DNA of 64,000 nucleotides from a virus. The notes under the pieces were generated by a model. It was given only the letters and a program-made list of their open reading frames with translations, did not search any database and was not told where the DNA came from. Where the stretch lies: positions 32,001 to 96,000 of the IMG/VR virus record IMGVR_UViG_3300031857_000038; one strand, given 5' to 3'. The translations under genes and the position numbers were made by a program. Positions 34,153-58,720 of the stretch are shown one piece after another. Position 1 is the first letter of the stretch. Each line of letters opens with the position of its first letter.

Positions 34153-34176
34153 GTTCTAACAAATAAATATTGACAC

Positions 34177-34989: not shown

Positions 34990-35002
34990 TAGGAATAGTA
35001 TA

Positions 35003-37347: not shown

Positions 37348-37398
37348 CTACCTAATAACATGTAAATACTCTATATAAACTAATAGGGGAATGTAAAG

Positions 37399-40259: not shown

Positions 40260-41217
40260 ATGGGACCCGCTTAAAAGCGTAATCGTTGGCATTGCAGATG
40301 ATGCTAAGATTCCTCCTACTAATATTGGACTACGCATTGTCAATTACGCCGATTTAACATTCAGTGAGTATATGGGTGTTAAACACGGTAGATATCCTGA
40401 CCAGGTGATTGAAGAAGCGAACGAAGACTTAGAACAACTCTGTGAATTCTTGCGTGAAGAAGAAATTCAAGTGGTTCGTCCAAGTAGCAACGACCCTGAA
40501 TACTATAACTACTGCCCTAGAGATACAGTATTAATTCACGATGACTTGATTCTTGCGACTCCAATGGCATTGTCATCTCGTAGAGATGAATGGCGAGCAA
40601 GTAAACAATATTTTGATTTTTCTAAGTTAGTAGTTGCGCCACCGCCTGAACATTCAGATACTTATAATAGCAAATGTATTGGCGACCCCGATACATTAGC
40701 ATTGCGTGAATATGAGCCTATATTTGATGCAGCTAATGTTCTACGAGCGAACGATGACCTGTTCTATTTGGTCAGCAACACCGGCAACAAGAAAGGTGCT
40801 GAATACTTACAAGAACTTGTAGGTCCAAACAAGCGTGTCCATACTATTGAAAATGTCTATAGCTACATTCATTTAGATAGCACTATTGCACTATTGCGTG
40901 AAGGGCTAATGTTACTGAATCCATCACGTATTAAGAGCGTAGAACAACTGCCGGAAGTATTGCGTAATTGGGATATCATTTGGGCTCCTGAGCCAGTTGA
41001 CATTGGTCACTATCCAGGATACTGTAATGCAAGTAAGTGGGTAAGTGTTAATCTATTGTCCATTAATCCTAATCTTGTTGTATTGGAAGAGCATCAACAT
41101 AATCTCAGACACGAACTAGAGAAGCACAAGATTAACTGTGCTATGTTACCTATGCGTCATGCTAGAACATTGGGAGGCACTTTCCACTGTGTTACTTTAG
41201 ATTTAATAAGGCAATGA
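40243..41217 (+). CDS. Amidinotransferase (glycine/inosamine-phosphate amidinotransferase family)
   Basis: NEWDPLKSVIVG, YCPRD, FDAAN, HLDST and GGTFHCVT (Asp/His/Cys triad). Confidence 0.9.
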   Translation: MLSKNEWDPLKSVIVGIADDAKIPPTNIGLRIVNYADLTFSEYMGVKHGRYPDQVIEEANEDLEQLCEFLREEEIQVVRPSSNDPEYYNYCPRDTVLIHDDLILATPMALSSRRDEWRASKQYFDFSKLVVAPPPEHSDTYNSKCIGDPDTLALREYEPIFDAANVLRANDDLFYLVSNTGNKKGAEYLQELVGPNKRVHTIENVYSYIHLDSTIALLREGLMLLNPSRIKSVEQLPEVLRNWDIIWAPEPVDIGHYPGYCNASKWVSVNLLSINPNLVVLEEHQHNLRHELEKHKINCAMLPMRHARTLGGTFHCVTLDLIRQ

Positions 41218-41239
41218 AGTAACCCAATAAATATACATT

Positions 41240-42967: not shown

Positions 42968-43716
42968 CTAAAGAAAAGATAGCGTTAATCGCAGGGTGCA
43001 GTCACAGTGCAGGATCAGAGATTGATGGCAACCTAGACAGCAAATACAACAGAGAACATTCTTTTGGTTCATTGCTTTCTAATAAGTTAGGCTATCGTCC
43101 TATCAATATAGCTATCAATGGTGCATCCAATACAGGTATTGCAAGAAGTGTATTGCTGTGGTTCGATGAGAATTATAATCCAGAAACAATGGATGTTTAT
43201 GTAATCATAGGGTGGACTGAAAGCTCTAGAATGGAAATTCCCGCTAAACACAGACCTAGTGACTTTCACTCGGGTAACCCTAGCATTGAATGGTATGATA
43301 GTTCTGCTAATAGTTACTTACGAATCAACTATGGCTGGACAGGTAATGACAGTTTTGAAAAGGCAGTTATTCCTAAATATCACGAATTCATGGCAGAGAA
43401 TGAGACATATCTAGAATACCAAGCAGCATCAAATGTGTTAATGGTGCAGTACTTTTTAAAATCATTAAATGTACCATATGTGATGTGCAACACTATGCAT
43501 ATGTTCGTGCCGAACGACCACTTTGTTAGTCACCTATTAAAGCTGATTGATAAGAAGTGTTATTATAACCTTGACTCAGGACAAGACTGTTCTTTCTTTT
43601 GGAAGTATAAAAACTTGGGCTATAAAAATATCAAGGCTAAATACTGGCATCATAACGAAATACCGCATACATTTTATGCAGAAGAATTATACAAGTTCAT
43701 AGGAGAACAACAATGA
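42964..43716 (+). CDS. SGNH-like protein (250 aa)
   Basis: AGCSHSAG, NIAINGASN, GWT..SR and C-terminal WHH...H. Confidence 0.65.
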   Translation: MTKEKIALIAGCSHSAGSEIDGNLDSKYNREHSFGSLLSNKLGYRPINIAINGASNTGIARSVLLWFDENYNPETMDVYVIIGWTESSRMEIPAKHRPSDFHSGNPSIEWYDSSANSYLRINYGWTGNDSFEKAVIPKYHEFMAENETYLEYQAASNVLMVQYFLKSLNVPYVMCNTMHMFVPNDHFVSHLLKLIDKKCYYNLDSGQDCSFFWKYKNLGYKNIKAKYWHHNEIPHTFYAEELYKFIGEQQ

Positions 43717-43814
43717 GATGGATTAGAAATATCATTAACAAGGTCAAGCGTGAGATTCAATATCGCAAGAGAATTAAGGAACTCAAGAAGCGAGATCCAT
43801 TCATTTACAAGTGA
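43713..43814 (+). CDS. 33-aa basic peptide MRWIRNIINKVKREIQYRKRIKELKKRDPFIYK (not in ORF track)
   Basis: AGGAG Shine-Dalgarno at 43701, ATGA overlap with the upstream gene, and a stop 6 nt before the carbamoyltransferase. Confidence 0.75.
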   Translation: MRWIRNIINKVKREIQYRKRIKELKKRDPFIYK

Positions 43815-43820
43815 GATAAT

Positions 43821-45314
43821 ATGAACTATGTAGGAATCAGTTGCGGCTTTCATGATGCCGGCTTAAGTGTCATTGATGACAATGGCGACATACTTTTTGC
43901 TGGACACAGTGAGCGTTACAGTATGAAGAAGCACGATAGCAAATTGTGTTCAGGTATAGTAGAAGACGCTAAGAATCATATCAATGATGACTTTGAAGTT
44001 CATTATTATGAGCGCCCGTATGTCAAAGCTGTTAGACAGTTTATTGCTAAACAACAGCTTGGCCCCTTCAATGTCAATGAGATAATAGGCAAGCATAACT
44101 TATATCAGCTGGAAAGTTTTAAGCATATTCGTCAGGGTAAAGTTAAGACACACAATCATCACTTATGTCACGCCGCAGCAGGATTTCAAACTAGTCCATA
44201 TGAAGACGCAACTGTAGTTGTCATTGACGCTATTGGTGAGTTGGACACTATCAGTATTTGGGATGCAACTTACGATAAGAACGGCAAAGCAAAGTACAAG
44301 AAGATTTGGGGGCGTAGATACCCTGACTCTATTGGACTGTTCTACTCTGCTATGACGGCACGAGTAGGCTTACGTCCACTAGATGAAGAATATATTCTAA
44401 TGGGTATGGCTGCATACGGAGAGCCTCTATATAACGCTTCAATGAAACAATTGTTTAGTAACTTCGGTGGTATCATGCTTAAGGACAACTTACATATCGG
44501 AGTAGATGATAGTTTCTTAAAGGAAGCAGATGAAATGGATATTGCTGCATCCGCACAAGAAGTTGTAGAACAGCTAATTGAAATAGTAATTAAGAAAGCT
44601 AAGAAGCTAGGCAGAAGCGACAATCTCGTATATGGTGGGGGCGTTGCTCTCAACTGCCTAGCTAACAGATTGATTGGTAAGTACTATCAGAACATTTGGA
44701 TTATGCCTAACCCGGGCGATGCAGGCAACAGCTTAGGTGCAGCAGCGTTAGGCTATGGTAAGAAGGTCAACTGGACTGATGCTTTCTTGGGCTTTAACAT
44801 TGAAGGCGAATACCCAGTTGACAACATCATAAAAGAGTTGTATACTAATAAGATGGTAGGTGTTGCTAGTGGCAGGGCAGAGTTTGGCCCTCGTGCATTA
44901 GGTAATCGTAGCCTACTTGCAGACCCTCGCGGGCCAGAGATTAAGGATAAAGTAAATGAAATTAAACGAAGACAGCAATTTAGACCATTTGCGCCCGTTA
45001 TTTTGGAGGAGCTGGTTTCTGATTACTTTGATATGCCTAGCGGCTGGAGTGACAGTAGGTATATGCAAGTCATCGCTACTTGTAGGCACCCTGACTTATT
45101 TCCTGCTATCGTTCATGCTGACGGGACTTCTCGTGTTCAAACTGTTGCGAATGACGGATCAGGAATCAGAAAGCTCTTAGAGGCTTGGTATAAAGAAACC
45201 GGTTGCCCAATGCTATTGAATACGTCATTAAACATACGCGGAGAACCAATGGTGAATGATAGGGCTGATGCAGATCGCTTTGAAAAACTCTACGGAGTAA
45301 AAGTCTGCTCATAA
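43821..45314 (+). CDS. Carbamoyltransferase (NodU/CmcH/TobZ family, 497 aa)
   Basis: HDAG...ERYS, HHLCHAA, DAIGE, MGMAAYG, GGVALNC, PGDAG, EFGPRALGNRSLL, FRPFAP and NTSLN. Confidence 0.93.
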   Translation: MNYVGISCGFHDAGLSVIDDNGDILFAGHSERYSMKKHDSKLCSGIVEDAKNHINDDFEVHYYERPYVKAVRQFIAKQQLGPFNVNEIIGKHNLYQLESFKHIRQGKVKTHNHHLCHAAAGFQTSPYEDATVVVIDAIGELDTISIWDATYDKNGKAKYKKIWGRRYPDSIGLFYSAMTARVGLRPLDEEYILMGMAAYGEPLYNASMKQLFSNFGGIMLKDNLHIGVDDSFLKEADEMDIAASAQEVVEQLIEIVIKKAKKLGRSDNLVYGGGVALNCLANRLIGKYYQNIWIMPNPGDAGNSLGAAALGYGKKVNWTDAFLGFNIEGEYPVDNIIKELYTNKMVGVASGRAEFGPRALGNRSLLADPRGPEIKDKVNEIKRRQQFRPFAPVILEELVSDYFDMPSGWSDSRYMQVIATCRHPDLFPAIVHADGTSRVQTVANDGSGIRKLLEAWYKETGCPMLLNTSLNIRGEPMVNDRADADRFEKLYGVKVCS

Positions 45315-45321
45315 GTAATAG

Positions 45322-48300
45322 ATGCTTAGAGACGTTTTTTATTATGGCAAGAAGCCCAATGTTCACCCCAGAGAACAATTCGCAGAGAATCTAGCTGATG
45401 CTAGACTAAAAGCCACCACTCGTGACTTTTGGATCATCAATGAGTTCTGTGACTATCGTAATTTTGATTGGGACTTTGATTTTGAATTCCTCCCAGACGA
45501 AGATGTTTGGGCAGAAGATCATAACAATGTGTGGCCTAGTCAACATCAAAAAGATAGCGGCACATGGTTGTGTCCAAAAGAAGACAGTGACCTAATCATC
45601 TATCGAGGTGATGTAGATCCAGTCATTCGTAAAAACGAAAAGACTGACCAATGGGTTGAGCTTGATTTAATCAACCATAATAAGTTTGACTTTAGTTGGC
45701 ATCCTGACCCAACTGACCCTCCCTATATCTATAAGTGGCCCTGCAAGTTCTTCCCTGCTGAGTTCAAGCATGTATTAGAATATCGTGTGCCAGGAGCAAC
45801 ACAAGAAAAATACATGAACACAATTGCAGAGTTGGTTCCTGAGTATGAGCGTTGGGTAGAACATCAAGCAATTGACAAAGATAGATTTGATATGTCGTGG
45901 AGACCGAATCCACTTGACCCGCCGTTCATCTATGTTTGGGGCAACAAATATATTGACGGGACACTTAGACCCACACTAGAGTATCATGCACCGAATGCAA
46001 CCGACAAAAAGTATATGTCAGAGTTGGTTCCTGTATTGCCCGAAACTGATAGATGGAACATAGTTGAAGATATTGATAAATCATCGTTTGACTTTAGCTG
46101 GAGACCAGACCCTAGAGAACCCGCTTTCATTTACGTATTCGGTAACGAACAATACGATGGCACTATCATGCCTACTGTTGAGTATCACTGCCCTGATGCA
46201 ACTGAAATTAAGTATGTTACTGATATCAAAGCCAAACTATCAAGTAAGAGAGAATTATTTGAACATCTTGAAGACAGCTATGGTCTAGATTATACATGGC
46301 GTCCGGACCCCACAAGCCCTCCCTACATCTATGCATGGGGCAATCAGTGGAATATACCAGAAGACAAGGTATCGGTGCAATTCGTAGTTGAAGGTGCTAC
46401 TGAATACAAGTATATGGAAGACCGTGCAGTACGCAAACCATGCATGGATAACTGGATAGTCCCTGATGATGTTGACACTACTGGATTTGACTTCAGTTGG
46501 GAACCTAGCCCTGCTGCACCACCGTATATTTACGAGTTCGCAACACAATGGCAGAAGACAGGAGGCCCTCAGTATGTAGTGCCTGGCGCTACTGAAAAAC
46601 AGTATGTTGACTTTCAAAAAGTCAGAAAGCTACCTTCAGTAGATAATTGGAATGTGCCTGATAACATTGATAGCACTACGTTTGACTTTAGTTGGCATCC
46701 AGATGATACTAGCCCTCCTTATATCTACGTGTTTGCTACTCAGTGGGCATTCAGTGGAGGACCCACATACATAGTTGATGATGCAACTGAAGTCAAGTAT
46801 GTAGATGATCAAATAGCAATTGCTAAACCGGACAAAACCAATTGGGTCTATGATGAGAAGCTGATTGATATCGAAAGTTTTGACTTTAGCTGGCATCCAT
46901 ATGTAGAAGACCAGCCCTATATCTATCAGTTCGGTACTCAATGGCAGAAGACAGGCGGACCTAAGTACATTACTCCGGGCGCTGATAGCTCTAGCCCAAC
47001 CAAATATATTGATACACGTATCTTAAAAGCAATTCGTTTGCCTAACAAACATGATAGTAACTGGAACTTATTCTATGAGGTGGCTGATTTTGATTTCAGT
47101 TGGCACCCAGACGACACCGAAGAACCATATAACTATGCTTTTGGCAACAATCTGTATCCCGCAGAAGAATGCACTACTATTCAATATAGAGTAGAAGGCG
47201 CTACCCAAACAAAATTTGTCAGCGATATAGTTGCAACGCTAGGCATCAATATGACTAATTGGGTTGTTCCCGAAAATGTTGATACCACTGGATTTGATTT
47301 TAGTTGGGTCCCTAACCCCAATGATCCTCTGTATACGTATGAGTTTGGAACGCAGCATCAAAAGACTGGCGGCCCTAGGTATGTTGCGCCGGGCGCAACT
47401 GAAATTAAGTATGTGGACTTTCAAAAAGTAATGCGATTGCCTAATTTGGATAATTGGGAAATTCCCGATTATGTTGACGTTACTGATTTTGACTTTAGTT
47501 GGCATCCAGACGATACAGACCCAGCATACATCTATCAGTTTGGTACTCAGTGGGCATTGACCGGTGGACCTAGGTATGTTGTGCCGGGCGCAACTGATGA
47601 AATTAAGTACATGGACAACTTAGTTGCTAAATCGTTGCCAAATAAAACCAACTGGGTGTATGATCCAACCTTGATTGACGTTACTGATTTTGACTTTAGT
47701 TGGCACCCATACGTAGAAGATCAGCCATATATTTACGAGTTTGGTACGCAGTGGCAGAAGACTGGTGGCCCTAAGTATATCACGCCCGGCGCTGATAGTT
47801 CTAGTCCGATAAAATATATTGATACTCGTATTCTCAAAGCGAAACGTCTGCCTAATAAAGAAAAGTATAATTGGGTAGAACGTTATCCCGTTAAAGACTT
47901 TGATTATTCGTGGCATCCCGACGATACCGAAGAGCCATACATCTATGTATTTGGCAATGAGCAATATGGTGCAGAAGATATGCCTACTGTAGAATATGTT
48001 GTTCCGAACGCAACTCAAATAAAATATATCACTGGCGTTTGTGCTAAGCTAGCACCTAGTAGAGATAACTGGAAAATCTATAAAGAAATTGACGAAGATG
48101 CGTTTGATTTTAGTTGGAGACCACACCCCAAAGACCCTGCGTACATTTACAGATGGGGTAACAAATATATCAGCAACAAGTATGAGCCTACTATAGAATA
48201 TATTGTTCCGGGCGCAACTGATATCAAATACATGGAAGACAATGTGATTGTTCTTCCGGAGCATGACCGTTGGTTTATTCCAGAGGGGATTGACCTTTCA

Positions 48301-51069
48301 GACTTTGACTTGTCATGGCGTCCTAACCCGTTAGAGCCGCCTCAAATTTATCAGTTTGGTACTCAGTGGCAGAAGACTAATGGTCCTAGATACACCTATC
48401 CTGGAGCAACAACAGTAAAATACGTAGATGAGCAAAAAGCAAGATATCTGCCTAATCAAAAGAATTGGGATATTCCTAAGAACGTAGACGTTACTGATTT
48501 TGACTTTAGCTGGCATCCTGATGACACTGATCCCGACTTCATCTATCAGTTCGGTACTCAGTGGGCATTGAACAGCGGCCCTAAGTACGTAGTGAATGGA
48601 GCTACCGAAGTCAAGTATGTAGATAATCCAATTGCTAAAGCCCTACCCGATAGAACCAATTGGGTATATGACGAAAATGAAATAGACGTTAACAGCTTTG
48701 ACTTTAGTTGGCACCCATATGTAGAAGATCAGCCATATATCTATCAGTTCGGTACACAACATCAAAAGACCGGCGGACCTAAATATGTCACTCCGGGTGC
48801 TGATAGCTCTAGCCCAATCAAATATATTGATACACGTATTATCAAGGCAAAACGATTGCCTAACCGAAGCAAGTTTAAAGTTTTGGGAGGGGTAAAAATC
48901 AAAGACTTCGACTGGTCTTGGCATCCCGATGATACTAGTCCCCCTTACATTTACCTATTCGGTAATAACTGGTATCCGGCAGATGAAATGCCGACAATTG
49001 AGTACAGAGTAGATGGCGCTGTAGAAGCTAAGTTTATTGATGACATGATAGCTAAGCTAGCCCCGAATAATAATAATTGGGAAGTGCGTGAAGATATAGA
49101 TGTTACTCGATTTGACTTTAGTTGGGTACCTCACCCATCAGCAAAACCCTACATTTACCAATTCGGTACTTCTGCAAATCCGTTAGATGGTCCGATATAT
49201 GTCGTGCCAGGTAATGAGGGTGAGATAATCAACGTTCCGAGAGTTGAAATTGATGTTGATGACACTATCATTGAAGATGAACAGATTGATATTCACGAGG
49301 AGAGCATCACTGAACAAATAGAAAACGTCTCTAGCGAAACAGTGGACATGTTCTTTGTTGACCGTGGAAACCCCGAAGCTGCTGCTAGATTTGAAGCACT
49401 AAAAGCGAAATATGGTACACAAATTCAAAAGACTCGCTATCTTAATAGTTGGGTAGACACTATCAATCGTTGCACTAATAGAGCAACTAGTGAATTGATT
49501 TGGGTACTGAACAGTGAACTTGATTACAGTGATTTCAACTTTAGCTACTATCCGAACCCTTGGCAAATAAAGATGGTACATGTATTTGGAACTCAATGGA
49601 GTCATTGGGGTACAACATTCATGATCAACACTGAAACTTTCCGTGAAGATACGAAATACATCAAGATAATTGAGCATTTAAGCAATCTAAACTTCGTGAA
49701 AGACATTAGAGCTACGGCCACAAAGTGCAGTCACGACATTGTGGTTATTGACCACGGTAATAAAGAAACACCCAATGTTGTTTCTATCTTGCAGAATAAA
49801 GCGCCTGACAAAACAGTTACTACTACCAAATACAATAACAGTTATTTGGACACACTAAGAGAAGTTATCAAGCGCCAGCCTGAGAAGAAAGAACATTTCA
49901 TTTGGGTATGTTCAAGTGTTTGTGATTACACTAACTTTGATTTCACTTACATAATTGATCCATTCTCAAGAGACAATCTGCATGTTTTCCCTAGTGGTAA
50001 ACAGAAGTTTGGCGACACATTCTTTATTGACGTTAGTAACGCAAGAGAAGTAATCAGTGAACTTGACAGGCTAGAAAACTTCACCAAAGTAAACTATAAT
50101 GGCACTGTGAAGGCAGAGCGTCTACAAGAACCAATCATTGTTATCAGTGATGACACGCACACTAACTCAATTGATAAGATTACTGACTTCCCGTACGCAA
50201 CATTAATTACTAGTGATAATGTTGACATTGGTAAGGTTGATGTAGAGCCAATGAATCTTTGGTCAGCCGAAACTAAGAACATCTATGTAACAAGTACAGG
50301 CTCCACTAGAATTGTTGCTCCCAAAGAAATTAAGGATTACGTTAAGAAAGAACTATACGAGTATCCATATATCAAACGTGCTCCTAAGCTATCATTGTCT
50401 AACCCACTAGACATTGTGTTCTTAAGCAACGGCGAAACTGGGGCAGAAGAACATTACGAGCATTTGCTGAATATCACTAAGAATCTCCCTAACAGAGTAG
50501 TGAGAGTAGATGGAGTGAATGGTCGTGCAGCAGCATATCACGCAGCAGCAGAAGCAAGCAACACTCCTTGGATGTTCACTGTGTTTGCTAAGCTGAAGGT
50601 CAGTCCTAAGTTTGACTTTAACTGGCAACCAGATAGAATGCAGAGTCCAAAGCATTATATCTTCCATGCAAAGAATCCTGTTAATGGATTGGTATATGGT
50701 CACCAAGCAATGATTGCGTACAATAAGAAGCTAACTCTAGCCAATGACGGTAAAGGACTAGACTTTACATTAGATGATGAGCATGAAGTTGTTCCGTTGA
50801 TTTCAGGTACTGCTCAATACAACACTGATGAGTTCTCAACATGGAGAACAGCATTCAGAGAGGTCATCAAGCTTAGAGCAGATGATAGCGAAGTGTCTAA
50901 GGAAAGACTTGATGCATGGTTGAATAAGGCAGAGGGTGACTTTGCTCAATACAGCATCAAGGGTGCGTTGGATGCAGACGAGTATTACGATGAAGTAGAC
51001 GGCGACTTTGACCAGTTGAAGTTGAGCTATGAGTGGGCTTGGCTCAGAGAAAAATTTGACCAAATCTGA
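45322..51069 (+). CDS. 1915-aa protein with 18 tandem FDFSWxP repeats and degenerate GT-A-like C-terminal domains
   Basis: Repeats of ~60-70 aa (FDFSW-x-P...PYIY-x-FG-x-QW...GGP-x-Y...GA...KY). The C-terminal DIVFLSNGE...RVDGVNGRAAAYHAAA...TWRTAFREVIKL is homologous to the gene at 21162. Confidence 0.8.
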   Translation: MLRDVFYYGKKPNVHPREQFAENLADARLKATTRDFWIINEFCDYRNFDWDFDFEFLPDEDVWAEDHNNVWPSQHQKDSGTWLCPKEDSDLIIYRGDVDPVIRKNEKTDQWVELDLINHNKFDFSWHPDPTDPPYIYKWPCKFFPAEFKHVLEYRVPGATQEKYMNTIAELVPEYERWVEHQAIDKDRFDMSWRPNPLDPPFIYVWGNKYIDGTLRPTLEYHAPNATDKKYMSELVPVLPETDRWNIVEDIDKSSFDFSWRPDPREPAFIYVFGNEQYDGTIMPTVEYHCPDATEIKYVTDIKAKLSSKRELFEHLEDSYGLDYTWRPDPTSPPYIYAWGNQWNIPEDKVSVQFVVEGATEYKYMEDRAVRKPCMDNWIVPDDVDTTGFDFSWEPSPAAPPYIYEFATQWQKTGGPQYVVPGATEKQYVDFQKVRKLPSVDNWNVPDNIDSTTFDFSWHPDDTSPPYIYVFATQWAFSGGPTYIVDDATEVKYVDDQIAIAKPDKTNWVYDEKLIDIESFDFSWHPYVEDQPYIYQFGTQWQKTGGPKYITPGADSSSPTKYIDTRILKAIRLPNKHDSNWNLFYEVADFDFSWHPDDTEEPYNYAFGNNLYPAEECTTIQYRVEGATQTKFVSDIVATLGINMTNWVVPENVDTTGFDFSWVPNPNDPLYTYEFGTQHQKTGGPRYVAPGATEIKYVDFQKVMRLPNLDNWEIPDYVDVTDFDFSWHPDDTDPAYIYQFGTQWALTGGPRYVVPGATDEIKYMDNLVAKSLPNKTNWVYDPTLIDVTDFDFSWHPYVEDQPYIYEFGTQWQKTGGPKYITPGADSSSPIKYIDTRILKAKRLPNKEKYNWVERYPVKDFDYSWHPDDTEEPYIYVFGNEQYGAEDMPTVEYVVPNATQIKYITGVCAKLAPSRDNWKIYKEIDEDAFDFSWRPHPKDPAYIYRWGNKYISNKYEPTIEYIVPGATDIKYMEDNVIVLPEHDRWFIPEGIDLSDFDLSWRPNPLEPPQIYQFGTQWQKTNGPRYTYPGATTVKYVDEQKARYLPNQKNWDIPKNVDVTDFDFSWHPDDTDPDFIYQFGTQWALNSGPKYVVNGATEVKYVDNPIAKALPDRTNWVYDENEIDVNSFDFSWHPYVEDQPYIYQFGTQHQKTGGPKYVTPGADSSSPIKYIDTRIIKAKRLPNRSKFKVLGGVKIKDFDWSWHPDDTSPPYIYLFGNNWYPADEMPTIEYRVDGAVEAKFIDDMIAKLAPNNNNWEVREDIDVTRFDFSWVPHPSAKPYIYQFGTSANPLDGPIYVVPGNEGEIINVPRVEIDVDDTIIEDEQIDIHEESITEQIENVSSETVDMFFVDRGNPEAAARFEALKAKYGTQIQKTRYLNSWVDTINRCTNRATSELIWVLNSELDYSDFNFSYYPNPWQIKMVHVFGTQWSHWGTTFMINTETFREDTKYIKIIEHLSNLNFVKDIRATATKCSHDIVVIDHGNKETPNVVSILQNKAPDKTVTTTKYNNSYLDTLREVIKRQPEKKEHFIWVCSSVCDYTNFDFTYIIDPFSRDNLHVFPSGKQKFGDTFFIDVSNAREVISELDRLENFTKVNYNGTVKAERLQEPIIVISDDTHTNSIDKITDFPYATLITSDNVDIGKVDVEPMNLWSAETKNIYVTSTGSTRIVAPKEIKDYVKKELYEYPYIKRAPKLSLSNPLDIVFLSNGETGAEEHYEHLLNITKNLPNRVVRVDGVNGRAAAYHAAAEASNTPWMFTVFAKLKVSPKFDFNWQPDRMQSPKHYIFHAKNPVNGLVYGHQAMIAYNKKLTLANDGKGLDFTLDDEHEVVPLISGTAQYNTDEFSTWRTAFREVIKLRADDSEVSKERLDAWLNKAEGDFAQYSIKGALDADEYYDEVDGDFDQLKLSYEWAWLREKFDQI
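45685..49210 (+). repeat. Intragenic tandem repeat array, 18 units, with a 4-unit higher-order block present 3 times
   Basis: WHPYVEDQPYIY(Q/E)FGTQ(W/H)QKTGGPKY(I/V)TPGADSSSP(T/I)KYIDTRI occurs three times (~46891, ~47701, ~48709) with high nucleotide similarity. Confidence 0.9.
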
Positions 51070-51079
51070 CATAAACCGG

Positions 51080-51108
51080 TTGACAACGATAAAAAAGATA
51101 AGTATAGT
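51080..51108 (+). promoter_or_regulatory. Sigma70-like promoter TTGACA-N17-TATAGT
   Basis: Consensus -35 with 17-nt spacer, upstream of the ATG at 51119. Confidence 0.7.
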
Positions 51109-51118
51109 AGAGGGTAAT

Positions 51119-51256
51119 ATGAAAGAAAATATTTTATACAATCAAAAATTTCTAGCCACAGCCGTGCTAGTAACTCCCTTAATTCCGGTGATAGCGTATG
51201 CCACATACAGGCTGGCACTTGAAGTTTGGTGCATCGCATACGGTTTGATCTACTAA
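51119..51256 (+). CDS. Small hydrophobic/membrane protein (45 aa)
   Basis: ATG after a GAGGG Shine-Dalgarno, followed by a hydrophobic stretch. The ORF-track start at 51029 overlaps the previous gene. Confidence 0.55.
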   Translation: MKENILYNQKFLATAVLVTPLIPVIAYATYRLALEVWCIAYGLIY

Positions 51257-51274
51257 CAGCCAAAGGAGGCTACT

Positions 51275-51637
51275 ATGAAGAAGATTGTTTCGCTTATTAC
51301 AATGACTGCAATGCTTGCAGTTTCTACTCCGGCATTTGCCGGTGATAGGGATCGTGATTACCGTTGGGGAAATGACAGAAATGTACACAGCCCTTATCAT
51401 AGACAGCATCATCGTCGTGATCGTGGTGTAAGCACAGAAGGTGCAATTATCATTGGTCTTGGAGCATTGCTTGTTGGAAAAGCTATTGCCGATAACAACA
51501 ATCGTCGCCGCAATCGTGAAGTAATCGTAGTAGAACGCCATCAGCCGCAACCTCGACAAGTTTGTCAGGACATAGTTCAACGTGACTATTACGGCAATCC
51601 TTATGTTGCTGGACGTAACTGCTGGTACGAGCAATGA
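51275..51637 (+). CDS. Secreted/periplasmic protein with signal peptide and glycine-zipper-like segment (120 aa)
   Basis: MKKIVSLITMTAMLAVSTPAFA signal peptide, R/D/H-rich segment, GAIIIGLGALLVG and a C-terminal Cys pair. AAGGAGG Shine-Dalgarno. Confidence 0.75.
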   Translation: MKKIVSLITMTAMLAVSTPAFAGDRDRDYRWGNDRNVHSPYHRQHHRRDRGVSTEGAIIIGLGALLVGKAIADNNNRRRNREVIVVERHQPQPRQVCQDIVQRDYYGNPYVAGRNCWYEQ

Positions 51638-51798
51638 TTGATTGGTCAGGTATGCGTCCTGTGCGAAAGCCGACTCAAAAGGAGCGCGGACGCTACCAGC
51701 GTTGGGTAAAGTATCTTAAAGATTCTAGACTCACCGAAGAACAAATTCATGAACGAGCAACTAGACTAACTGAAATGGGTCGTGAACCTGATCTATAA
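51634..51798 (+). CDS. Hypothetical 54-aa protein (not in ORF track)
   Basis: ATGA overlap with the previous gene. MIDWSGMRPVRKPTQKERGRYQRWVKYLKDSRLTEEQIHERATRLTEMGREPDL. Confidence 0.6.
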   Translation: MIDWSGMRPVRKPTQKERGRYQRWVKYLKDSRLTEEQIHERATRLTEMGREPDL

Positions 51799-51800
51799 TT

Positions 51801-51968
51801 ATGGTAGTCTGTAATTGTAGAAACATTAGAGAATCGCAATTTACTAGCAGAGAAGAACTAGCTGCCCGTATTTTGCAAGATGATTATTGTTGTGGTACAT
51901 GTTTAGACGAGTTTTTACCAAACGACAATAAAAAGATTGACACGAACCCCCAACTAGTATATAAATAG
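51801..51968 (+). CDS. Bfd-like [2Fe-2S] mini-ferredoxin, 55 aa (not in ORF track)
   Basis: MVVCNC...YCCGTC matches the Bfd pattern M-x-x-C-x-C...C-G-x-C. Confidence 0.6.
   Translation: MVVCNCRNIRESQFTSREELAARILQDDYCCGTCLDEFLPNDNKKIDTNPQLVYK
51937..51967 (+). promoter_or_regulatory. tmRNA promoter: TTGACA-N17-TATAAA, overlapping a perfect T4-type late promoter TATAAATA
   Basis: TTGACA at 51937-51942 and TATAAATA at 51960-51967. The predicted start site (~51972) matches the start of the paired tmRNA region. Confidence 0.75.
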
Positions 51969-51971
51969 ATT

Positions 51972-52210
51972 ATCAGTTGTTTGATGCAATCTGATGTTTG
52001 TGCAGGACCCGGGGGCGGTACCCGGCGCCTCCACCATAAACTTATGGGGGCGAAATAGGATCGACTGCAAGGCAGAGGTGAGAGTAGACTGATTGGTTGG
52101 CCGCATATAAGCCAAAAACTGTAAATGTCGCAGCTAATGACAACAATGTGGATCTTGCGCTAGCCGCATAATCCTGTGAGCCCGGCGGAGCTTAGAAACA
52201 GAATCCGCCA
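51972..52210 (+). ncRNA. ssrA: Circularly permuted (two-piece) tmRNA, alphaproteobacterial type
   Basis: T-arm CCGGG-GGCGGTA-CCCGG plus CGCCTCCACCA (ends 52036) comes before the 5' end GGGGGCGAAATAGGATCGAC (starts 52046). Acceptor stem has G3:U70. Tag (V)AANDNNVDLALAA-TAA at 52127-52171. 3' pseudoknot with AACAGAA loop at 52197-52203. Confidence 0.95.
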
Positions 52211-52233
52211 ACTTTGCACACATAAATATCTTT

Positions 52234-52716
52234 ATGTCTTTGCCCACTACGATACACATTGATCGTCTCCCCAATCTTAGATTTGACCTTGCTCAACTGT
52301 TGAGAGAATACCAAAGTGTCTCATACATTCTAACGGATGTTACCAATCATGGCAATGCTGTATTAGTCCAAAGTAAGTTCCATCTTGTGCAGACAGGCAG
52401 AGAGTCAACCGAACTTAGCAATCTTCCATATACCCATGAAGTCATTAGAACAATAATGAACATTCATAAGTTTGACTCCGCAACTTATAGAATCGTTATG
52501 CCCAACACTTGCTACAATTGGCACGTTGACAAGGGAAAGACTTGTGTTCATATTCCTATAATCACCAACATAGGTTGCAGGTTTATTTACGAGCATAAAT
52601 CATTCTTGATGCCTGCTGATGGTAGCGCCTATGTAGTCAATAACGGTATCCCTCATTCTTTTATGAATGCAGGTTCAGAGCCTAGATTGCATCTTACCTT
52701 TGAAAATCTAGATTGA
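52234..52716 (+). CDS. Aspartyl/asparaginyl beta-hydroxylase-like 2OG-Fe(II) oxygenase (160 aa)
   Basis: YNWHVD...HIPIITN...PHSFMNAG.EPRLHL (HxD...H...R). ATAAATA at 52222. Confidence 0.75.
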   Translation: MSLPTTIHIDRLPNLRFDLAQLLREYQSVSYILTDVTNHGNAVLVQSKFHLVQTGRESTELSNLPYTHEVIRTIMNIHKFDSATYRIVMPNTCYNWHVDKGKTCVHIPIITNIGCRFIYEHKSFLMPADGSAYVVNNGIPHSFMNAGSEPRLHLTFENLD

Positions 52717-52743
52717 CCATAGAACTATACTGATAAATACAGT

Positions 52744-55566
52744 ATGGACATTAATGAACTAGAATCCTTTAAATTAAGCGATGCTGTAACTTTTCACAAG
52801 GAATTGAACCCTAAGTTGTGGGAAGGTACTAAACTTGACCCAGAAGTGCGTGATCAGTTATTGTTGATTGCAGAAGATTTTGTAGAATATCTAGGCATTA
52901 GTAATCTTAAAGTTAGAGACGTTACCATCAGTGGTAGTAACGCTGCCTATTCATATACTCCACACAGTGATTTAGACTTGCACGTATTGGTAGACTTCAA
53001 TGAACTACCAAACAATGAAGTGTATCAAGAACTATTCACTGCTAAGAAAACATTATACAACGATGCCCACGACATTACCGTTCGTGATGTTCCTGTAGAA
53101 TTATATGTACAGGACACTAACCAACCCCATTTTAGCTTAGGTGAATACAGCGTTGTATATGACAAGTGGATTCGTATTCCTAAAAAGCGTAGAGCAAATT
53201 TTGACGAAGCTGCAACTAAAGCAAAGTATGAGAAGCTTGGCGACCTCATTGAGTTAGCATTGAAGTCAAGAGATCCAAAAAGAGTCAACGATACCCTCGC
53301 ATTAATTAAGCGTTATCGCAAGAGCGGGCTAGAGAAAGCCGGCGAGTTTGGTCCTGAGAATCTAGCATTCAAAGCAATCAGAAAGCAAGGACTGATTCAA
53401 GACCTACATGACCTTAAAACACAACTACACGCTGAAAAGTTAAGCATTGACGAGTATGCTAATGAAGACTACGACCCAAATGGTCCGCCCCCTGGTCCTG
53501 AGTTTAAGCCGACGATGCCTGCAGGTACTGTCAGAGTAGACGTTAGTGATGTATACGACTGGTACAAGCTAGGACAGCATATCAGCAATATGAAGGGTTT
53601 AGGCAAGCATGACTTTGGTAAAGGTCCTCCCAGCACTATCTTCTCATTTGGTGATGAAGATACCGAACACAAATATATTAAAGATTTAGAAAAGACTGGT
53701 CTAACCACAACTGACATTGACCCTATTGACCCTAATCAACCTAAAGGTATGAAACGTCAAAAGACTGACCCTACGTATAATGTCAATGAGACAGACGATA
53801 GAAAAGCAGCAGTACTTAAGATTCAGAAACATTTGAATAAGAAGTATGGCGCTAACCTTGACCTTGATGGTAAGCTAGGTCCGTTGACTCTCAAATCAAT
53901 CAACAAGTTTATGCCTAGAGCAAAGACTGGATTAGCTGATGAGCCTAACAAGACAACAGCAGTGCAGGGTAAGAAGCTAAAAGAAAGTCAGTATGAAAAC
54001 AAAATTGAAAACTTCGTTCAATCGCTGAATCCTGATGATGTTGGTGTAGAACAAATTGGTCCGTACCACGTTCACTTTGAAGGCTTCACTGATGAATGTC
54101 AACAGGATGCAGAAAGACGATGCAATCTACCATCGGACAACCCACGACACTTAGCAAACTATGACGATGTTTATAAGGAAGTCATACGAGACTTTGTTAG
54201 GCGTGAAGGCGGCAAAAAGCCACTAAAAGTTGGCTTTGCTGGATATCAAGATTACCCTGTTATATATGCAGTGTTTGCCAATCCTGAACCATACAAGAAT
54301 CCAGATACTTGGAATCCAAAAATAGATGAAACAGTTGACGCACACACTATCTACAGCGATGTACAAAGCGGGCACCGAGAACCGGATGACTTTGTTGAAG
54401 GTGATATTGGTGACAGAATCTATTGGTTTGATGATTATAAATTAACCTCACTTCCTATATCTAATCTTAATCTAGATGAACATTATGTAGATGAGGACCT
54501 AGTAGATGACTACATAGAGCATATCAAAGACTCACCGAAAACTATGCCTCCGATTGTTTATGATCCTATTGCAAAATCAATAATTGACGGAATCCATCGT
54601 GCTAATGCTTATGCTAATTTAGGATATGATACTATCCCAGCTTATGTTGGACTAACCAAATCTAGCAGCTACGGTGAGCGAGAAGGCGATAACGATTTAT
54701 ATGAAGCCTCAGGATACATTCCATCAGCAAAAGAAAAGAACGATCCTCGCTTCAAGACTGCCCTCACCGTAGATGTAAAGCCAGACGCAATCAAGAAGAA
54801 CGCTAAGGCATTTGGCTTCAAGACTTCCAGAGCAGGCATCCCTCCCCAAGCCAGAGCAGACGGAAAGATTGCAGAAGACCTAATGCGAGAGTTTAAAACT
54901 TTTTTAGGTGAGCAGCAGGAAGAAATGTTTCCGGGCTATGACGAGCAGCACAGAGAAAAGCGTTTAGGTAATTGGTTAGCAAAGTCTTGGGGCGTACAGA
55001 ACGGCAAGCCACAGACATTCTATCACGCAACAACCAAAGACTTTGACACATTCAATACGCATGGCACAGGATTCGCTAGTGCATTGGGAATGGCATATGA
55101 AGTAGAGCGTCATGGTTCCTTCTTCGCAGTGGACCCAAAGTTTGCTGAAGGCTTCATTGAAGATCCAAACACTGGGCGAGTCAAGGAAGGTGGCAGAATT
55201 CTTCCGGTACACCTGTCAATACAATCTCCGATTGATTTACGTGATGATGCACTGTCAAGAATGCTGAGTGATGAGGAAACCGTAGCAGAATTCAAAGCTA
55301 ACGACATTGACCTTCGTTCAATCTACAATCACTTTTACGAACTTGAACGATGGGAACTGTTTGATGGTCCCGAAGGCGCAGAGTTTATTGATAACCTACA
55401 GAAGCTAGGCTTTGATGGGGCAATCATTAACGAAGCAATCCCTAACAATAGCAACGCTAAGTCCGGTCAAGTCTGGGTCGCCTTCAATCCTAATCAGGTC
55501 AAGTCAGTTTACAATCGCGGCTCGTTCTCCCCTGACGATAATAGGCTCACTAAAGAAAGCGGTTGA
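52744..55566 (+). CDS. Polyvalent multi-domain protein: Pol-beta-type nucleotidyltransferase + PG-binding-like + ParB/Srx-like + ART-like (940 aa)
   Basis: SGSN...SDLDLH...VELY (NTase); IQKHL...DGKLGPLT (PG-binding); PPIV...IIDGIHRANA...IPAYV (ParB/Srx); FYHATTKDFDTF...SFFA...PVHLSIQSP...GFDG...VAFNPNQVKS (ART-like). ATAAATA at 52733. Confidence 0.75.
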   Translation: MDINELESFKLSDAVTFHKELNPKLWEGTKLDPEVRDQLLLIAEDFVEYLGISNLKVRDVTISGSNAAYSYTPHSDLDLHVLVDFNELPNNEVYQELFTAKKTLYNDAHDITVRDVPVELYVQDTNQPHFSLGEYSVVYDKWIRIPKKRRANFDEAATKAKYEKLGDLIELALKSRDPKRVNDTLALIKRYRKSGLEKAGEFGPENLAFKAIRKQGLIQDLHDLKTQLHAEKLSIDEYANEDYDPNGPPPGPEFKPTMPAGTVRVDVSDVYDWYKLGQHISNMKGLGKHDFGKGPPSTIFSFGDEDTEHKYIKDLEKTGLTTTDIDPIDPNQPKGMKRQKTDPTYNVNETDDRKAAVLKIQKHLNKKYGANLDLDGKLGPLTLKSINKFMPRAKTGLADEPNKTTAVQGKKLKESQYENKIENFVQSLNPDDVGVEQIGPYHVHFEGFTDECQQDAERRCNLPSDNPRHLANYDDVYKEVIRDFVRREGGKKPLKVGFAGYQDYPVIYAVFANPEPYKNPDTWNPKIDETVDAHTIYSDVQSGHREPDDFVEGDIGDRIYWFDDYKLTSLPISNLNLDEHYVDEDLVDDYIEHIKDSPKTMPPIVYDPIAKSIIDGIHRANAYANLGYDTIPAYVGLTKSSSYGEREGDNDLYEASGYIPSAKEKNDPRFKTALTVDVKPDAIKKNAKAFGFKTSRAGIPPQARADGKIAEDLMREFKTFLGEQQEEMFPGYDEQHREKRLGNWLAKSWGVQNGKPQTFYHATTKDFDTFNTHGTGFASALGMAYEVERHGSFFAVDPKFAEGFIEDPNTGRVKEGGRILPVHLSIQSPIDLRDDALSRMLSDEETVAEFKANDIDLRSIYNHFYELERWELFDGPEGAEFIDNLQKLGFDGAIINEAIPNNSNAKSGQVWVAFNPNQVKSVYNRGSFSPDDNRLTKESG

Positions 55567-55978: not shown

Positions 55979-57079
55979 ATGTCTCAGATGTCCGATAATC
56001 TCACTATCACTTCAATTCAGGCCCGTAAGGCAATTCTCGCTGCGTTTAAGGCAAAGCGTCCTGTCTTTCTTTGGGGCCCTCCAGGCATCGGTAAGTCCGA
56101 ATGCGTTCAGGAAATCACTGATGAACTCGGTGGTTACATGGTCGATTTGCGTATGGCGCAGATGGAACCGACTGACATTCGCGGTATCCCCTACTTCAAC
56201 AAGGATATCGGCAAGATGGATTGGGCCGAGCCTGTCGATCTTCCTAGCGAAGAACTCGCTGCACAGTATCCGATTGTGGTTCTGTTTCTTGACGAAATGA
56301 ACTCTGCCCCGCCCGCTGTTCAGGCTGCTGGTTATCAGCTTATTCTGAACCGTCGTGTTGGTAAGTACAAGCTGCCTGATAACGTTGTTATCGTTGCTGC
56401 TGGTAACCGCGATAGCGACAAGGGCGTTACATATCGTATGCCGATGCCGCTTGCTAACCGTTTCGTTCACCTTGAAATGCGTCCTGACTTCAATTCTTGG
56501 CAGCAGTGGGCTGTTAACAAGGGCGTTCACAAGGACGTTGTTGGTTATCTCTCGTTCGCTAAGCAGGATATGTACGACTTTGACGCTAAGGCTTCGTCTC
56601 GTGCCTTCGCTACCCCGCGTTCGTGGGTGTTCGTGAGCGACTTGCTTACTGACGAGGACAACGTTGATAACGATACGCTGTTCAATCTCGTTGCTGGTGC
56701 AGTTGGTGACGGTCTCGCTACTAAGTTCATGGCACATCGTCGTGTTGCTGGTCAGATGCCGAACCCCGCTGACATTCTTGATGGTAAGGTCAAGGACCTT
56801 AAGGTCAAGGAAATCTCTGCGATGTATTCGCTTACGATTTCTATGTGCTACGAACTTAAGGAAGCACTTGACAACAAGCGTGTTGATAACAAGCAGTTCC
56901 ACGTGATGGCTGATAACTTCTTTGAATACATCATGAAGAACTTCGAAACTGAACTGGTTGTGATGGGTGCTAAGATTGCGCTTAAGACGTACCGTCTGCC
57001 GATTGAGCCCTCGCAGCTTTCTAACTTTGACGAGTTCCACAAGAAGTACGGTAAGTACATCGTGGAAGCTGGCAACTAA
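55979..57079 (+). CDS. MoxR/dynein-related AAA+ ATPase (366 aa)
   Basis: Walker A GPPGIGKS, Walker B LFLDE, AAGNR, LANRF and TPRSW. Confidence 0.9.
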   Translation: MSQMSDNLTITSIQARKAILAAFKAKRPVFLWGPPGIGKSECVQEITDELGGYMVDLRMAQMEPTDIRGIPYFNKDIGKMDWAEPVDLPSEELAAQYPIVVLFLDEMNSAPPAVQAAGYQLILNRRVGKYKLPDNVVIVAAGNRDSDKGVTYRMPMPLANRFVHLEMRPDFNSWQQWAVNKGVHKDVVGYLSFAKQDMYDFDAKASSRAFATPRSWVFVSDLLTDEDNVDNDTLFNLVAGAVGDGLATKFMAHRRVAGQMPNPADILDGKVKDLKVKEISAMYSLTISMCYELKEALDNKRVDNKQFHVMADNFFEYIMKNFETELVVMGAKIALKTYRLPIEPSQLSNFDEFHKKYGKYIVEAGN

Positions 57080-57092
57080 GCCAGCAAGCTCC

Positions 57093-57126
57093 GGGGGAGG
57101 GTTCGAGACAGCCCTCCCCCATTTTT
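57093..57126 (+). terminator. Rho-independent terminator
   Basis: GGGGGAGGGT...GCCCTCCCCC hairpin followed by ATTTTT. Confidence 0.8.
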
Positions 57127-57139
57127 CGTAGGTATTAAT

Positions 57140-57340
57140 ATGAGCATAGCCACTTGCGCGGTTTGCGGTGTCCAAGTAGAAAGAACACTTCATCAATTCC
57201 CTACTCGCAAGTATCCGCACAATGCTCCCTACCTTGCTGCTCTATATCACCGAGATCCGTTTTGGGGTAAAGGTGACTTTGAAGAATATTGCAGCGCCAA
57301 ATGCGCTACAGAAGCGTTCTTAAAAAGCAAACAAACTTGA
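57140..57340 (+). CDS. Small Zn-finger-like protein (66 aa)
   Basis: CAVC...YCSAKC. Confidence 0.6.
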   Translation: MSIATCAVCGVQVERTLHQFPTRKYPHNAPYLAALYHRDPFWGKGDFEEYCSAKCATEAFLKSKQT

Positions 57341-57349
57341 AGTTTTTGG

Positions 57350-57378
57350 TTGACAATACCCTTAAGGTTTGTTATATT
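57350..57378 (+). promoter_or_regulatory. Sigma70-like promoter TTGACA-N17-TATATT
   Basis: Correct spacing, followed by a TAAGGAG Shine-Dalgarno and the ATG at 57404. Confidence 0.7.
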
Positions 57379-57403
57379 GACTATATCAACTAAGGAGATT
57401 TCT

Positions 57404-58720
57404 ATGAGTGACGTTATTCCCGGTACTGCGACTAAGCCTAAGAAGGGCAAGCGCACCCGTAGCAAGAAGTTTGAAAATCTGATTGGTCCGACTGACCCTA
57501 AGATTGATCACGAAGCCCGTGAGCGTCTTATTACCGCTCGTATCGGTCTCCTGCTCCGTCAAAGCTTTTTCGGTAATCTCGCTACTCGTATGCAGCTTGT
57601 AAACGCTGACGAATGGTGCTCCACTGCTGCTACTGACGGTCTGCGTTTCTACTACAACAGTCGTTTCATTAAGATGCTTCGCACTAAGGAAGTTGAATTC
57701 CTTGTCGGTCACGAAGTTCTTCACGTTGTTTACGATCACCTTGGTCGTCGTGACAATCGTGACCCTGAGATTTGGAACATTGCTAACGACTATGCCGTTA
57801 ATGCTGACCTCAAGCGTCACAAGGTCGGTGAAATGATTACTACTGTTCCTGCTCTTTATGAGAGCAAGTACGATGGTCTTGCTTCGGAAGTCATTTACGA
57901 CGACCTCATGAAGAATGTCAAGTATATCAACATTGACGACCTTCTTGACAAGATGCTTGACGATCACCTTGAAGATGAAGGTCAAGGTTCTGGTGATGGT
58001 GACGAAGATGGCGAAGGCAATGGTCAGAAGGGTAATGGTAAGCGTCCGCGGATGAGTCCTGAGGAGCGTGAACAGGCCCGTCAGGAAATGAAGCAGGCTA
58101 TTCTTAACGCTGCACAGACTGCCGAAGCTGGTACTATTCCGCTGGGCGTTGAACGTCTTATCAAGCAGCTTACTGACCCTGTCATGCCCTGGCGTGAACT
58201 TATCCAAACTAATTTGACCTCTGCTATCAAGTCCGATTACACTTGGATGCGTCCTTCTCGTCGTTCTTGGCACATGGATGCTGTTATGCCTGGTATGAAT
58301 CCTGGTGAAGAAATTGACGTTGATATCTATATTGATATGTCAGGTTCTATCAGTAATAAGCAGGGTATGCAGTTCCTTAGCGAAGTTGGTGGTATGATGG
58401 AAGCGTTTGATGGTTACTCGCTCCGCGTCACTTGCTTTGATACTCGCTGCTACAACACGCAGGAGTATACGAGCGAGAACATGGAGAACATTGAGGAGTA
58501 TCAGCTTCACGGTGGCGGCGGTACCGACTTTGATAGCATCTTTGATGACCTCAAGGAAGCTGGTCGTGTTCCCAATCGCTTGATTGTCTTCACTGATGGT
58601 TATCCGTGCGGTAGCTGGGGTGATGCTGATTACTGTGATACGACTTGGATCATTCACGGTGACCCCAATCCGAACCCGCCCTTCGGTACATATGCTATCT
58701 ACGATGATCACAAAAAATAA
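57404..58720 (+). CDS. Metallopeptidase-like (HExxH) + VWA domain protein (DUF2201-like), partner of the AAA ATPase
   Basis: TAATDG...HEVLH...WNIANDYAVN, MIDAS DMSGS, GGGGTDF and FTDG. Start corrected to 57404. Confidence 0.88.
   Translation: MSDVIPGTATKPKKGKRTRSKKFENLIGPTDPKIDHEARERLITARIGLLLRQSFFGNLATRMQLVNADEWCSTAATDGLRFYYNSRFIKMLRTKEVEFLVGHEVLHVVYDHLGRRDNRDPEIWNIANDYAVNADLKRHKVGEMITTVPALYESKYDGLASEVIYDDLMKNVKYINIDDLLDKMLDDHLEDEGQGSGDGDEDGEGNGQKGNGKRPRMSPEEREQARQEMKQAILNAAQTAEAGTIPLGVERLIKQLTDPVMPWRELIQTNLTSAIKSDYTWMRPSRRSWHMDAVMPGMNPGEEIDVDIYIDMSGSISNKQGMQFLSEVGGMMEAFDGYSLRVTCFDTRCYNTQEYTSENMENIEEYQLHGGGGTDFDSIFDDLKEAGRVPNRLIVFTDGYPCGSWGDADYCDTTWIIHGDPNPNPPFGTYAIYDDHKK

Follow-up and report, generated by a model that had tools for sequence, protein, structure and literature searches.

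The cellular two-piece tmRNA of Alphaproteobacteria was reportedly described by Keiler, Shapiro and Williams in 2000, and Sharkady and Williams (2004) is said to be prior work on this subject. Two-piece tmRNAs encoded by phages have likewise already been published, namely for Melnitz, the pelagimyophages and the Sinorhizobium jumbo phages. In the Melnitz paper, 53 of the 133 unique phage tmRNAs (18,146 phage genomes) are of the two-piece form, and permuted tmRNAs are reported in 17 of 47 related contigs (PMC9004378); the tmRNA database of 2025 contains 79 unique sequences from phages, and its permuted sequences number 11,946 (PMC11915505). The phage tmRNAs listed by 2014 were those of mycobacteriophages, phage G and DS6A (PMC4131195).

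The window (the whole stretch of 64,000 nucleotides analysed in this work) contains a gene resembling those of Melnitz and the pelagimyophages, as it codes for an alpha-type permuted tmRNA, belongs to a lytic T4-like myophage and has a promoter directly upstream, with no phage smpB reported (PMC9004378). Unlike Melnitz, the window phage represents a jumbo lineage with a terminase nearest to those of Phosso, Atu_ph07 and PA5oct, and its tmRNA locus has no glutamine riboswitch, possesses a spacer of only 9 nt and carries two extra tag codons before ANDN. The Sinorhizobium phage Phosso is also a jumbo myophage with an alpha-type permuted tmRNA, and its host is a cultured alphaproteobacterium; it differs from the window phage in that the sequence similarity is confined to the tRNA-like domain, the neighbouring genes are different and the spacer is long. 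The mycobacteriophages of the Bxz1 group, Bacillus phage G and DS6A share with the window phage an ssrA gene not accompanied by a phage smpB, but the tmRNAs of the mycobacteriophages and phage G are one-piece and unpermuted, and the DS6A RNA has no tag frame whereas the window gene has a complete one (PMC4131195). Like the cellular alpha tmRNA of the Caulobacter type (RF01849), the RNA is permuted and possesses the GGCRGUA loop, the G3:U70 pair, an ANDN...AA tag and a pseudoknot with AACAGAA, unlike it being encoded by a virus.

It is likely, in our judgement, that this ssrA gene of a jumbo T4-like phage is a working one, the precursor of which is matured to two pieces and which takes part in ribosome rescue together with host partners. 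The locus adds a compact, cleanly delimited virus-encoded ribosome-rescue RNA to those already known and opens no new question; its jumbo lineage does have a cultured relative, Phosso, which would allow the gene's role to be examined.

The viral record and the surroundings of the gene

The record contains 118,793 bases, has no end repeats and is 34% complete according to CheckV; the window corresponds to its bases 32001-96000. It is part of a jumbo T4-like myophage. The PHROG scans, which covered 75 ORF calls, revealed structural and packaging proteins (portal, baseplate hub and wedge, large terminase), replication and recombination proteins (SbcCD-like gp46/47, gp32-like SSB, UvsX, UvsY) and metabolic enzymes (thymidylate synthase and DHFR). 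The terminase shares 50.7% identity with that of Phosso, 51.7% over 81% of the length with that of Agrobacterium phage Atu_ph07, 48.9% with that of Pseudomonas phage PA5oct and about 42% with those of Rak2-like phages, its nearest relatives being jumbo myophages without exception.

Directly downstream of the tmRNA lies an ORF of 160 codons (52234-52716) coding for a protein with an Asp/Arg beta-hydroxylase-like domain (PF05118, 35.8 bits), followed by a 940-residue ORF (52744-55566) ending in a polyvalent-protein ADP-ribosyltransferase domain (PF18760, 59.7 bits). Polyvalent proteins are thought to enter the cell along with the injected DNA. SmpB (PF01668) was found neither in the record, which is about 34% complete, nor in five related fragments, so the function of the tmRNA would rely on host SmpB, although with two thirds of the genome missing the absence of smpB from the phage is not established.

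Identification and architecture of the tmRNA

ARAGORN calls a single RNA gene, both in the 64-kb window and in the 118.8-kb record as a whole. This gene, at 51944-52262 (+), is a permuted tmRNA, and its tag is VAANDNNVDLALAA. The locus matches two Rfam models, alpha_tmRNA (RF01849; 92.6 bits, E 7e-24, cut-off 50) and tmRNA_permuted (RF04321; 89.3 bits, E 8e-16, cut-off 47, with the alignment beginning at 51972), in both cases exceeding the curated gathering score, which serves as the Rfam membership threshold for a covariance model. No glutamine riboswitch and no further Rfam family were found at the tmRNA locus. The initial annotation, made by reading the sequence, had proposed a phage-encoded, circularly permuted tmRNA of the alpha type and named Infernal with the Rfam model and ARAGORN as checks; both gave positive results which, along with the phage gene context, back the proposal, and every sequence detail it listed is present on direct reading. 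The match to the two-piece tmRNA architecture is far beyond chance. The features of the RNA are as follows.

51972..52036, + strand: predicted acceptor piece, 65 nt (5' end from promoter geometry, 3' end from CCA), with the 5' hairpin/P2 strands, the T-arm, the acceptor 3' strand, A73 and the encoded CCA
52009-52025, + strand: T-arm CCGGG / GGCGGTA / CCCGG (from the sequence)
52026-52032, + strand: acceptor 3' strand CGCCTCC (from the sequence)
52033, + strand: discriminator A (A73; from the sequence)
52034-52036, + strand: encoded CCA (from the sequence)
52037..52045, + strand: intervening segment TAAACTTAT, 9 nt, predicted to be removed on maturation (from the sequence)
52046..52213, + strand: predicted coding piece, about 168 nt (from Rfam alignments), with the acceptor 5' strand, a P2 strand at 52065-70, the tag frame, helix 5 and the terminal pseudoknot
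52046-52052, + strand: acceptor 5' strand GGGGGCG (from the sequence)
52127..52171, + strand: tag reading frame (V)(A)ANDNNVDLALAA with the stop codon TAA at 52169-71 (from ARAGORN)
52177..52209, + strand: terminal H-type pseudoknot, S1 formed by TGAGC (52177-81) and GCTTA (52190-94), S2 by GGCGGA (52184-89) and TCCGCC (52204-09)
52197-52203, + strand: AACAGAA in the pseudoknot loop (from the sequence)

The acceptor 3' end (52036) is located 5' of GGGGGCG (52046) with the 9-nt gap between them, as had been noticed at the outset, and the 7-bp acceptor stem contains the G3:U70 alanine determinant followed by A73; the T-arm has a 5-bp stem and a 7-nt loop (sequence and model alignment). TGCAG (52001-05) is complementary to CTGCA (52065-69), as annotated. 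A second pairing between the two pieces had been suggested for ATCAGT (51972-77) and ACTGAT (52088-93). The two strands are indeed complementary, but the 5' ATCAG has three candidate partners, namely CTGAT within 52088-93 (RF04321), CTGAT at 51991-95, which is the choice of the energy-minimum fold, and TTGAT at 51981-85 (RF01849). In the related locus L088, the 5' strand, its local CTGAT partner and its long-range partner have all changed in concert, with the inner local stem changed from TTG/CAA to TCG/CGA, and because of these joint changes the support for a local 5' hairpin is no weaker than that for the long-range pairing.

The proximal P2 helix is present, two of the four pairs in the middle P2 helix of RF04321 are non-standard, the distal P2 helices of RF01849 are mostly absent, and, as compared with the alpha model, about 40 positions have been lost from the stretch that separates the stop codon from the pseudoknot. 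With the middle P2 helix imperfect and the distal helices largely gone, the RNA body is unusually reduced, making this a minimal tmRNA with a mature length of about 233 nt, unlike the cellular alpha tmRNA with its 355-position model. When the precursor or the two pieces together were folded by energy with no constraints, neither the acceptor stem nor P2 was recovered, a result uninformative either way. The resume codon candidates are GTC at 52127 (the ARAGORN choice), GCA at 52130 and GCT at 52133. The tag runs from a resume codon through an ANDN body to a hydrophobic end in LAA, followed by the stop codon, a pattern shared with 114 cellular tags; the exact tag is absent among these 114, its LAA end resembling the cellular alpha tags.

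The T-loop GGCGGTA and the pseudoknot motif AACAGAA, both of which are read directly in the sequence, had been put forward as alphaproteobacterial signatures. The comparison involved at least 120 cellular alphaproteobacterial loci retrieved with an acceptor-stem pattern and having spacers of up to 31 nt. Among the loci listed from this sample, GGCRGTA is present in 119 of 120 and AACAGAA in 113 of 116 for which the downstream sequence reaches far enough, so within these spacer limits the two signatures hold. The beta-type viral relative L260 has a T-loop different from the alpha GGCRGUA.

Related viral loci and selection

When viral contigs were scanned for the alpha T-arm/acceptor pattern, at least 119 stretches were obtained. 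The same tmRNA in the same place was found in seven contigs (L036, L075, L079, L088, L008, L114 and L118), and an eighth locus, L084, is broken off after 66 nt. In the relatives, the tmRNA is flanked by genes homologous to the small ORFs upstream and to the genes downstream of the window tmRNA. A BLAST comparison of the locus with 50,697 phage records produced no more than two matches, both short (37 and 61 nt).

The tag varies among the relatives in three ways, by a change of GCG..GCC to GCC..GCG, of TAA to TGA and, in L088, of Asp to Glu. The first change is synonymous and preserves the small hairpin 52157-59/52165-67. Locus L088, despite an identity of 91-92%, retains every element of the gene. 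In the pseudoknot alignment, comprising 11 viral tmRNAs (eight distinct), 88.6% of cells are paired versus 72.5% in shuffles, changes on both sides are seen in seven of the 11 pairs, and the covariation score is 0.536 (versus 0.256), which none of 500 shuffles reached and which lies far above the scores of all slid registers. The proximal P2 helix of more distant viral tmRNAs, compared by eye, shows the changes of CAG/CTG to CTG/CAG, TTG/CAA and CGG/CTG. As judged from these substitution patterns, the tag and the helices are under selection.

Putative promoter and late signals

Three signals were recognized around the gene.

51937..51942, + strand: -35-like hexamer TTGACA, inside the 3' end of a 55-codon ORF (51801-51968)
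51960..51967, + strand: TATAAATA, comprising the -10 hexamer TATAAA (51960-65) and the late-promoter-like core TAAATA (51962-67)
52223..52228, + strand: second TAAATA, 11 nt before the ATG of ORF 52234-52716

TTGACA and TATAAA are separated by 17 nt in a near-consensus sigma-70 layout, with no T at -7, and the tmRNA promoter is not among the sites reported by the consensus promoter scan. TTGAC is kept in L036, L075, L079, L008, L114, L118 and L084, as is GTATATAAATAG in the relatives, and the sequence of the 17-nt spacer varies; the same stretch also encodes the end of the small ORF.

The octamer TATAAATA, which we take to be the T4 late promoter consensus, occurs once in 118.8 kb versus about five occurrences expected, hence the full consensus is not the late signal of this phage. 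The core TAAATA, in contrast to its expected 1.3 occurrences (derived from 55 occurrences on both strands of the record), is found 21 times in the 5,520 nt made up by the 60-nt windows upstream of 92 ORF calls. A gp55-like late sigma factor is among the proteins encoded by the record (phrog_12791, E 2e-78), which thus has both marks of a T4-type late promoter, the sigma factor and a motif enriched upstream of genes. The initial annotation had combined a sigma-70 and a late promoter here. Its late half is in keeping with the TAAATA enrichment and the gp55-like factor; the combined promoter as annotated is to be qualified by the missing T at -7, the silence of the promoter scan and the single occurrence of TATAAATA. 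Expression both early and late from the putative tmRNA promoter is a reasonable idea given the enrichment of TAAATA upstream of ORFs and the encoded sigma factor.

The tmRNA cassette ends at the second TAAATA, which is kept as ATAAATAT in L036, L075, L079 and L088. TAAATA starts 10-13 nt before a start codon in seven of the 21 cases, for example at 52223-52228 and 52734-52739, and promoters that near to start codons would give leaderless or nearly leaderless late mRNAs. No terminator-like site that could mark the 3' end of the RNA was reported by the consensus scan within 51000-53000, and conservation among the relatives stops near 52213.

Exchange of the cassette and of its spacer

The window locus and the loci L036 and L079 are identical in 65 of 65 positions of the acceptor piece and in 166-167 of 168 positions of the coding piece, although their flanks share 66-70% identity at the DNA level and 51-58% at the protein level. 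The comparison with L008 gives a different picture, with flanks 91-93% identical, promoter 36/36 and acceptor piece 65/65 but a coding piece of 88.2% identity, where the differences cluster from the tag end through the pseudoknot. L008 does not have the downstream 160-codon gene.

The spacer varies as well. The 9-nt TAAACTTAT is identical in L036 and L088, and the same position is filled by 127 nt in L075 and L079 and by an unrelated 121 nt in L008, L114 and L118. The loci L036 and L079 have flanks 95% identical, yet the former carries the 9-nt spacer and the latter the 127-nt stem-closed insert. The 121- and 127-nt inserts are closed by a stem of about 10 bp, have predicted folds of -44 and -45 kcal/mol, respectively, and gave no hit to any Rfam family with an E value of 1 or less. 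Across the viral loci the spacer length ranges from 8 to 264 nt. Nearly all the long viral alpha spacers (L068, L102, L100, L107, L111, L029) begin with TA(A/G)R(C/T)ACA and end with TGT..T(A/T)TGAT, these shared ends forming a closing stem atop the acceptor stem, and some viral spacers (152-264 nt) read as small ORFs whose peptides are homologous between loci.

A search of viral contigs with the downstream 160-residue protein left six of 32 candidate stretches confirmed. Five of these loci (L260-L264; 58% identity) have a permuted tmRNA with the tag ANDETFALAA directly upstream of the 160-residue gene; two of the six loci were given to Rfam, and the tmRNA of L260 is of the beta type (RF01850, 125.3 bits, cut-off 84). 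In the sixth, L259, the slot contains 11 tRNA genes. The loci L259-L264 share the downstream 160- and 940-residue proteins with 53-58% identity. Since an alpha tmRNA, a beta tmRNA or tRNAs occupy the same slot, the slot is conserved while its RNA content is exchanged, and the switch of RNA type among relatives suggests matching to the host.

These observations can be brought together in the following scheme, to which we would give about an even chance. The tmRNA would be an exchangeable cassette whose slot stays upstream of the genes for the hydroxylase-like protein and the polyvalent ADP-ribosyltransferase; the slot would take an alpha tmRNA, a beta tmRNA or an array of tRNAs, the choice presumably reflecting the class of host, with the alpha form spread recently by recombination across flanks about 68% identical. 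The 9-nt spacer would be an empty insertion slot holding unrelated stem-closed 121- or 127-nt RNAs in close relatives (flanks of 91-95%). The window gene is the plain form with the empty spacer, a real and correctly identified gene which is probably functional.

The same data could be read as those of a recently captured or exchanged passenger, a cassette which recombines between phages and persists without aiding infection. A cassette of 99-100% identity between flanks of 66-70%, the mosaic with L008 and the presence of beta-type tmRNA or tRNAs in the same slot of other relatives would all fit such a passenger, and near-identity in divergent phages could mean recent transfer rather than long selection. 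Against a passenger, the allele changes are synonymous or compensatory and not random, the gene has its own conserved promoter elements and L088 has kept the whole set of elements in spite of its divergence. We regard this alternative to a working ssrA gene as improbable.

Proposed maturation and function

For a working ssrA gene, we infer as follows where transcription starts, how the RNA is processed, which host partners it uses and how the phage benefits. One precursor of about 240 nt would be transcribed from the gene's own promoter, with the 3' half of the tRNA-Ala-like domain preceding the 5' half and its tag template. Host RNase P would cut before G52046, a single cut sufficing to separate the pieces, and the 9-nt trailer would be trimmed to the encoded CCA as it is for tRNA 3' ends. 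Cutting of permuted tmRNA transcripts by tRNA-processing enzymes is described in PMC11915505. The pieces would be held together by the acceptor stem of 7 bp and by P2, a short helix, and host AlaRS would charge the RNA by virtue of G3:U70 and A73. Together with host SmpB and EF-Tu, the RNA would enter stalled ribosomes, add (V)(A)ANDNNVDLALAA and free the ribosome, by which the phage would raise the rescue capacity while the mRNAs of the cell are degraded or cut during infection. The initial annotation had also suggested that the RNA might serve against RNA-cleaving defences, an idea for which specific support did not emerge.

The spacer of 9 nt is shorter than the 27-30 nt commonest in the listed sample of cellular alpha loci (spacers up to 31 nt). 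It is nevertheless compatible with normal processing, since nine of the 120 cellular alpha loci listed from that sample have spacers of up to 10 nt. The RNA-labelled runs cover small parts of the stretch, and the contigs of four of the 14 listed contain mostly tRNA-like domains of other organisms and a few pieces of relatives; in run X3, a 62-nt contig with a depth of 74 spans about 51972-52034, corresponding to the predicted acceptor piece, such contigs being unable to show RNA ends and the library possibly being DNA.

A role other than rescue was also considered, in which the RNA manipulates the host by titrating its SmpB or by tagging chosen host proteins for breakdown and amino-acid recycling. 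Both variants have precedents in the literature: the tagging of proteins of the host so that their amino acids can be reused was proposed for Melnitz (PMC9004378), and titration of SmpB was reported for the bare tRNA-like domain of phage DS6A (PMC4131195). In favour of such a role, the parts of the phage genome seen contain no smpB, and the possible early-plus-late promoter would yield high levels of the RNA. On the other hand, a tag frame would be superfluous in a decoy, and yet it is conserved along with its stop codon and the LAA end, and no target selectivity is encoded in the sequence. We find this role a little less probable than even that of a passenger, and ribosome rescue by a working ssrA gene is the preferred reading.

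Host and origin of the gene

The host had been annotated as an alphaproteobacterium. The RNA type, its switch among the relatives and the relationship to Phosso speak for it; what weakens the claim is that the listed cellular matches do not extend beyond the tRNA-like domain, that the tag equals none of the 114 cellular ones and that Melnitz provides a counterexample, as this OM43 phage has an alpha-type ssrA with a methylotroph outside Alphaproteobacteria as its host (PMC9004378). We would put the probability of an alphaproteobacterial host at roughly two in three, going by the type of RNA and the phage relatives. The exchangeable nature of the module, in its RNA type, its spacer and its tag-plus-pseudoknot end, has a bearing on the prediction of hosts from phage tmRNAs.

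No donor lineage emerged from any of the three comparisons carried out. The 21-mer of the P2 region occurs in none of 185,579 species genomes. BLAST with the 242-nt query gave matches in 361 of 401 alphaproteobacterial genomes, and all the 150 matches listed fall within query positions 29-109, that is the tRNA-like domain, with 243 further matches existing. In the semi-global comparison with 233 loci, only viral loci are close to the window.

The remaining possibility, host DNA in the record, either as an assembly chimera or as an ssrA attachment-site remnant of a temperate element, can be regarded as effectively refuted: ssrA is a common integration site (PMC4383910 and PMC11915505) and several other viral loci among the at least 119 stretches lie at contig ends, but the window gene is located 84 kb from the start of the 118.8-kb contig, with phage genes of the same strand on either side, a position which makes such an artefact very unlikely, no integrase (PF00589) was found in the record, the cellular matches listed above are of the tRNA-like domain only, and seven related phage contigs share the gene.

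Phosso, which infects Sinorhizobium, carries an alpha-type permuted tmRNA scoring 108 bits with RF01849 and 113.3 bits with RF04321. The gene (L268; PV764938.1, 349596-350198, minus strand) is located in a gap with no annotated feature, and its intervening segment is long, since the Rfam match spans 603 nt. Table 1 of PMC11242549 lists one tmRNA for the Sinorhizobium jumbo phage AP-J-162 and none for Atu_ph07, and our own scan of Atu_ph07 agrees with the latter, no tmRNA having been found.

Other genes in the window

Two giant ORFs are present in the window, one of 4,438 codons at 15-13331 and the other of 1,915 codons at 45322-51069, the latter matching nothing in PHROG or Pfam. A large sugar-modification block occupies 22112-27183 and 28507-45314; in it, four radical-SAM paralogues in tandem precede genes for a nucleotide-sugar epimerase, UDP-glucose dehydrogenase, an aminotransferase-like protein and a carbamoyltransferase. 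A gene for a MoxR-like AAA ATPase adjoins that for a DUF2201 metallopeptidase/VWA protein at 55979-58720, the two representing a known gene pair.
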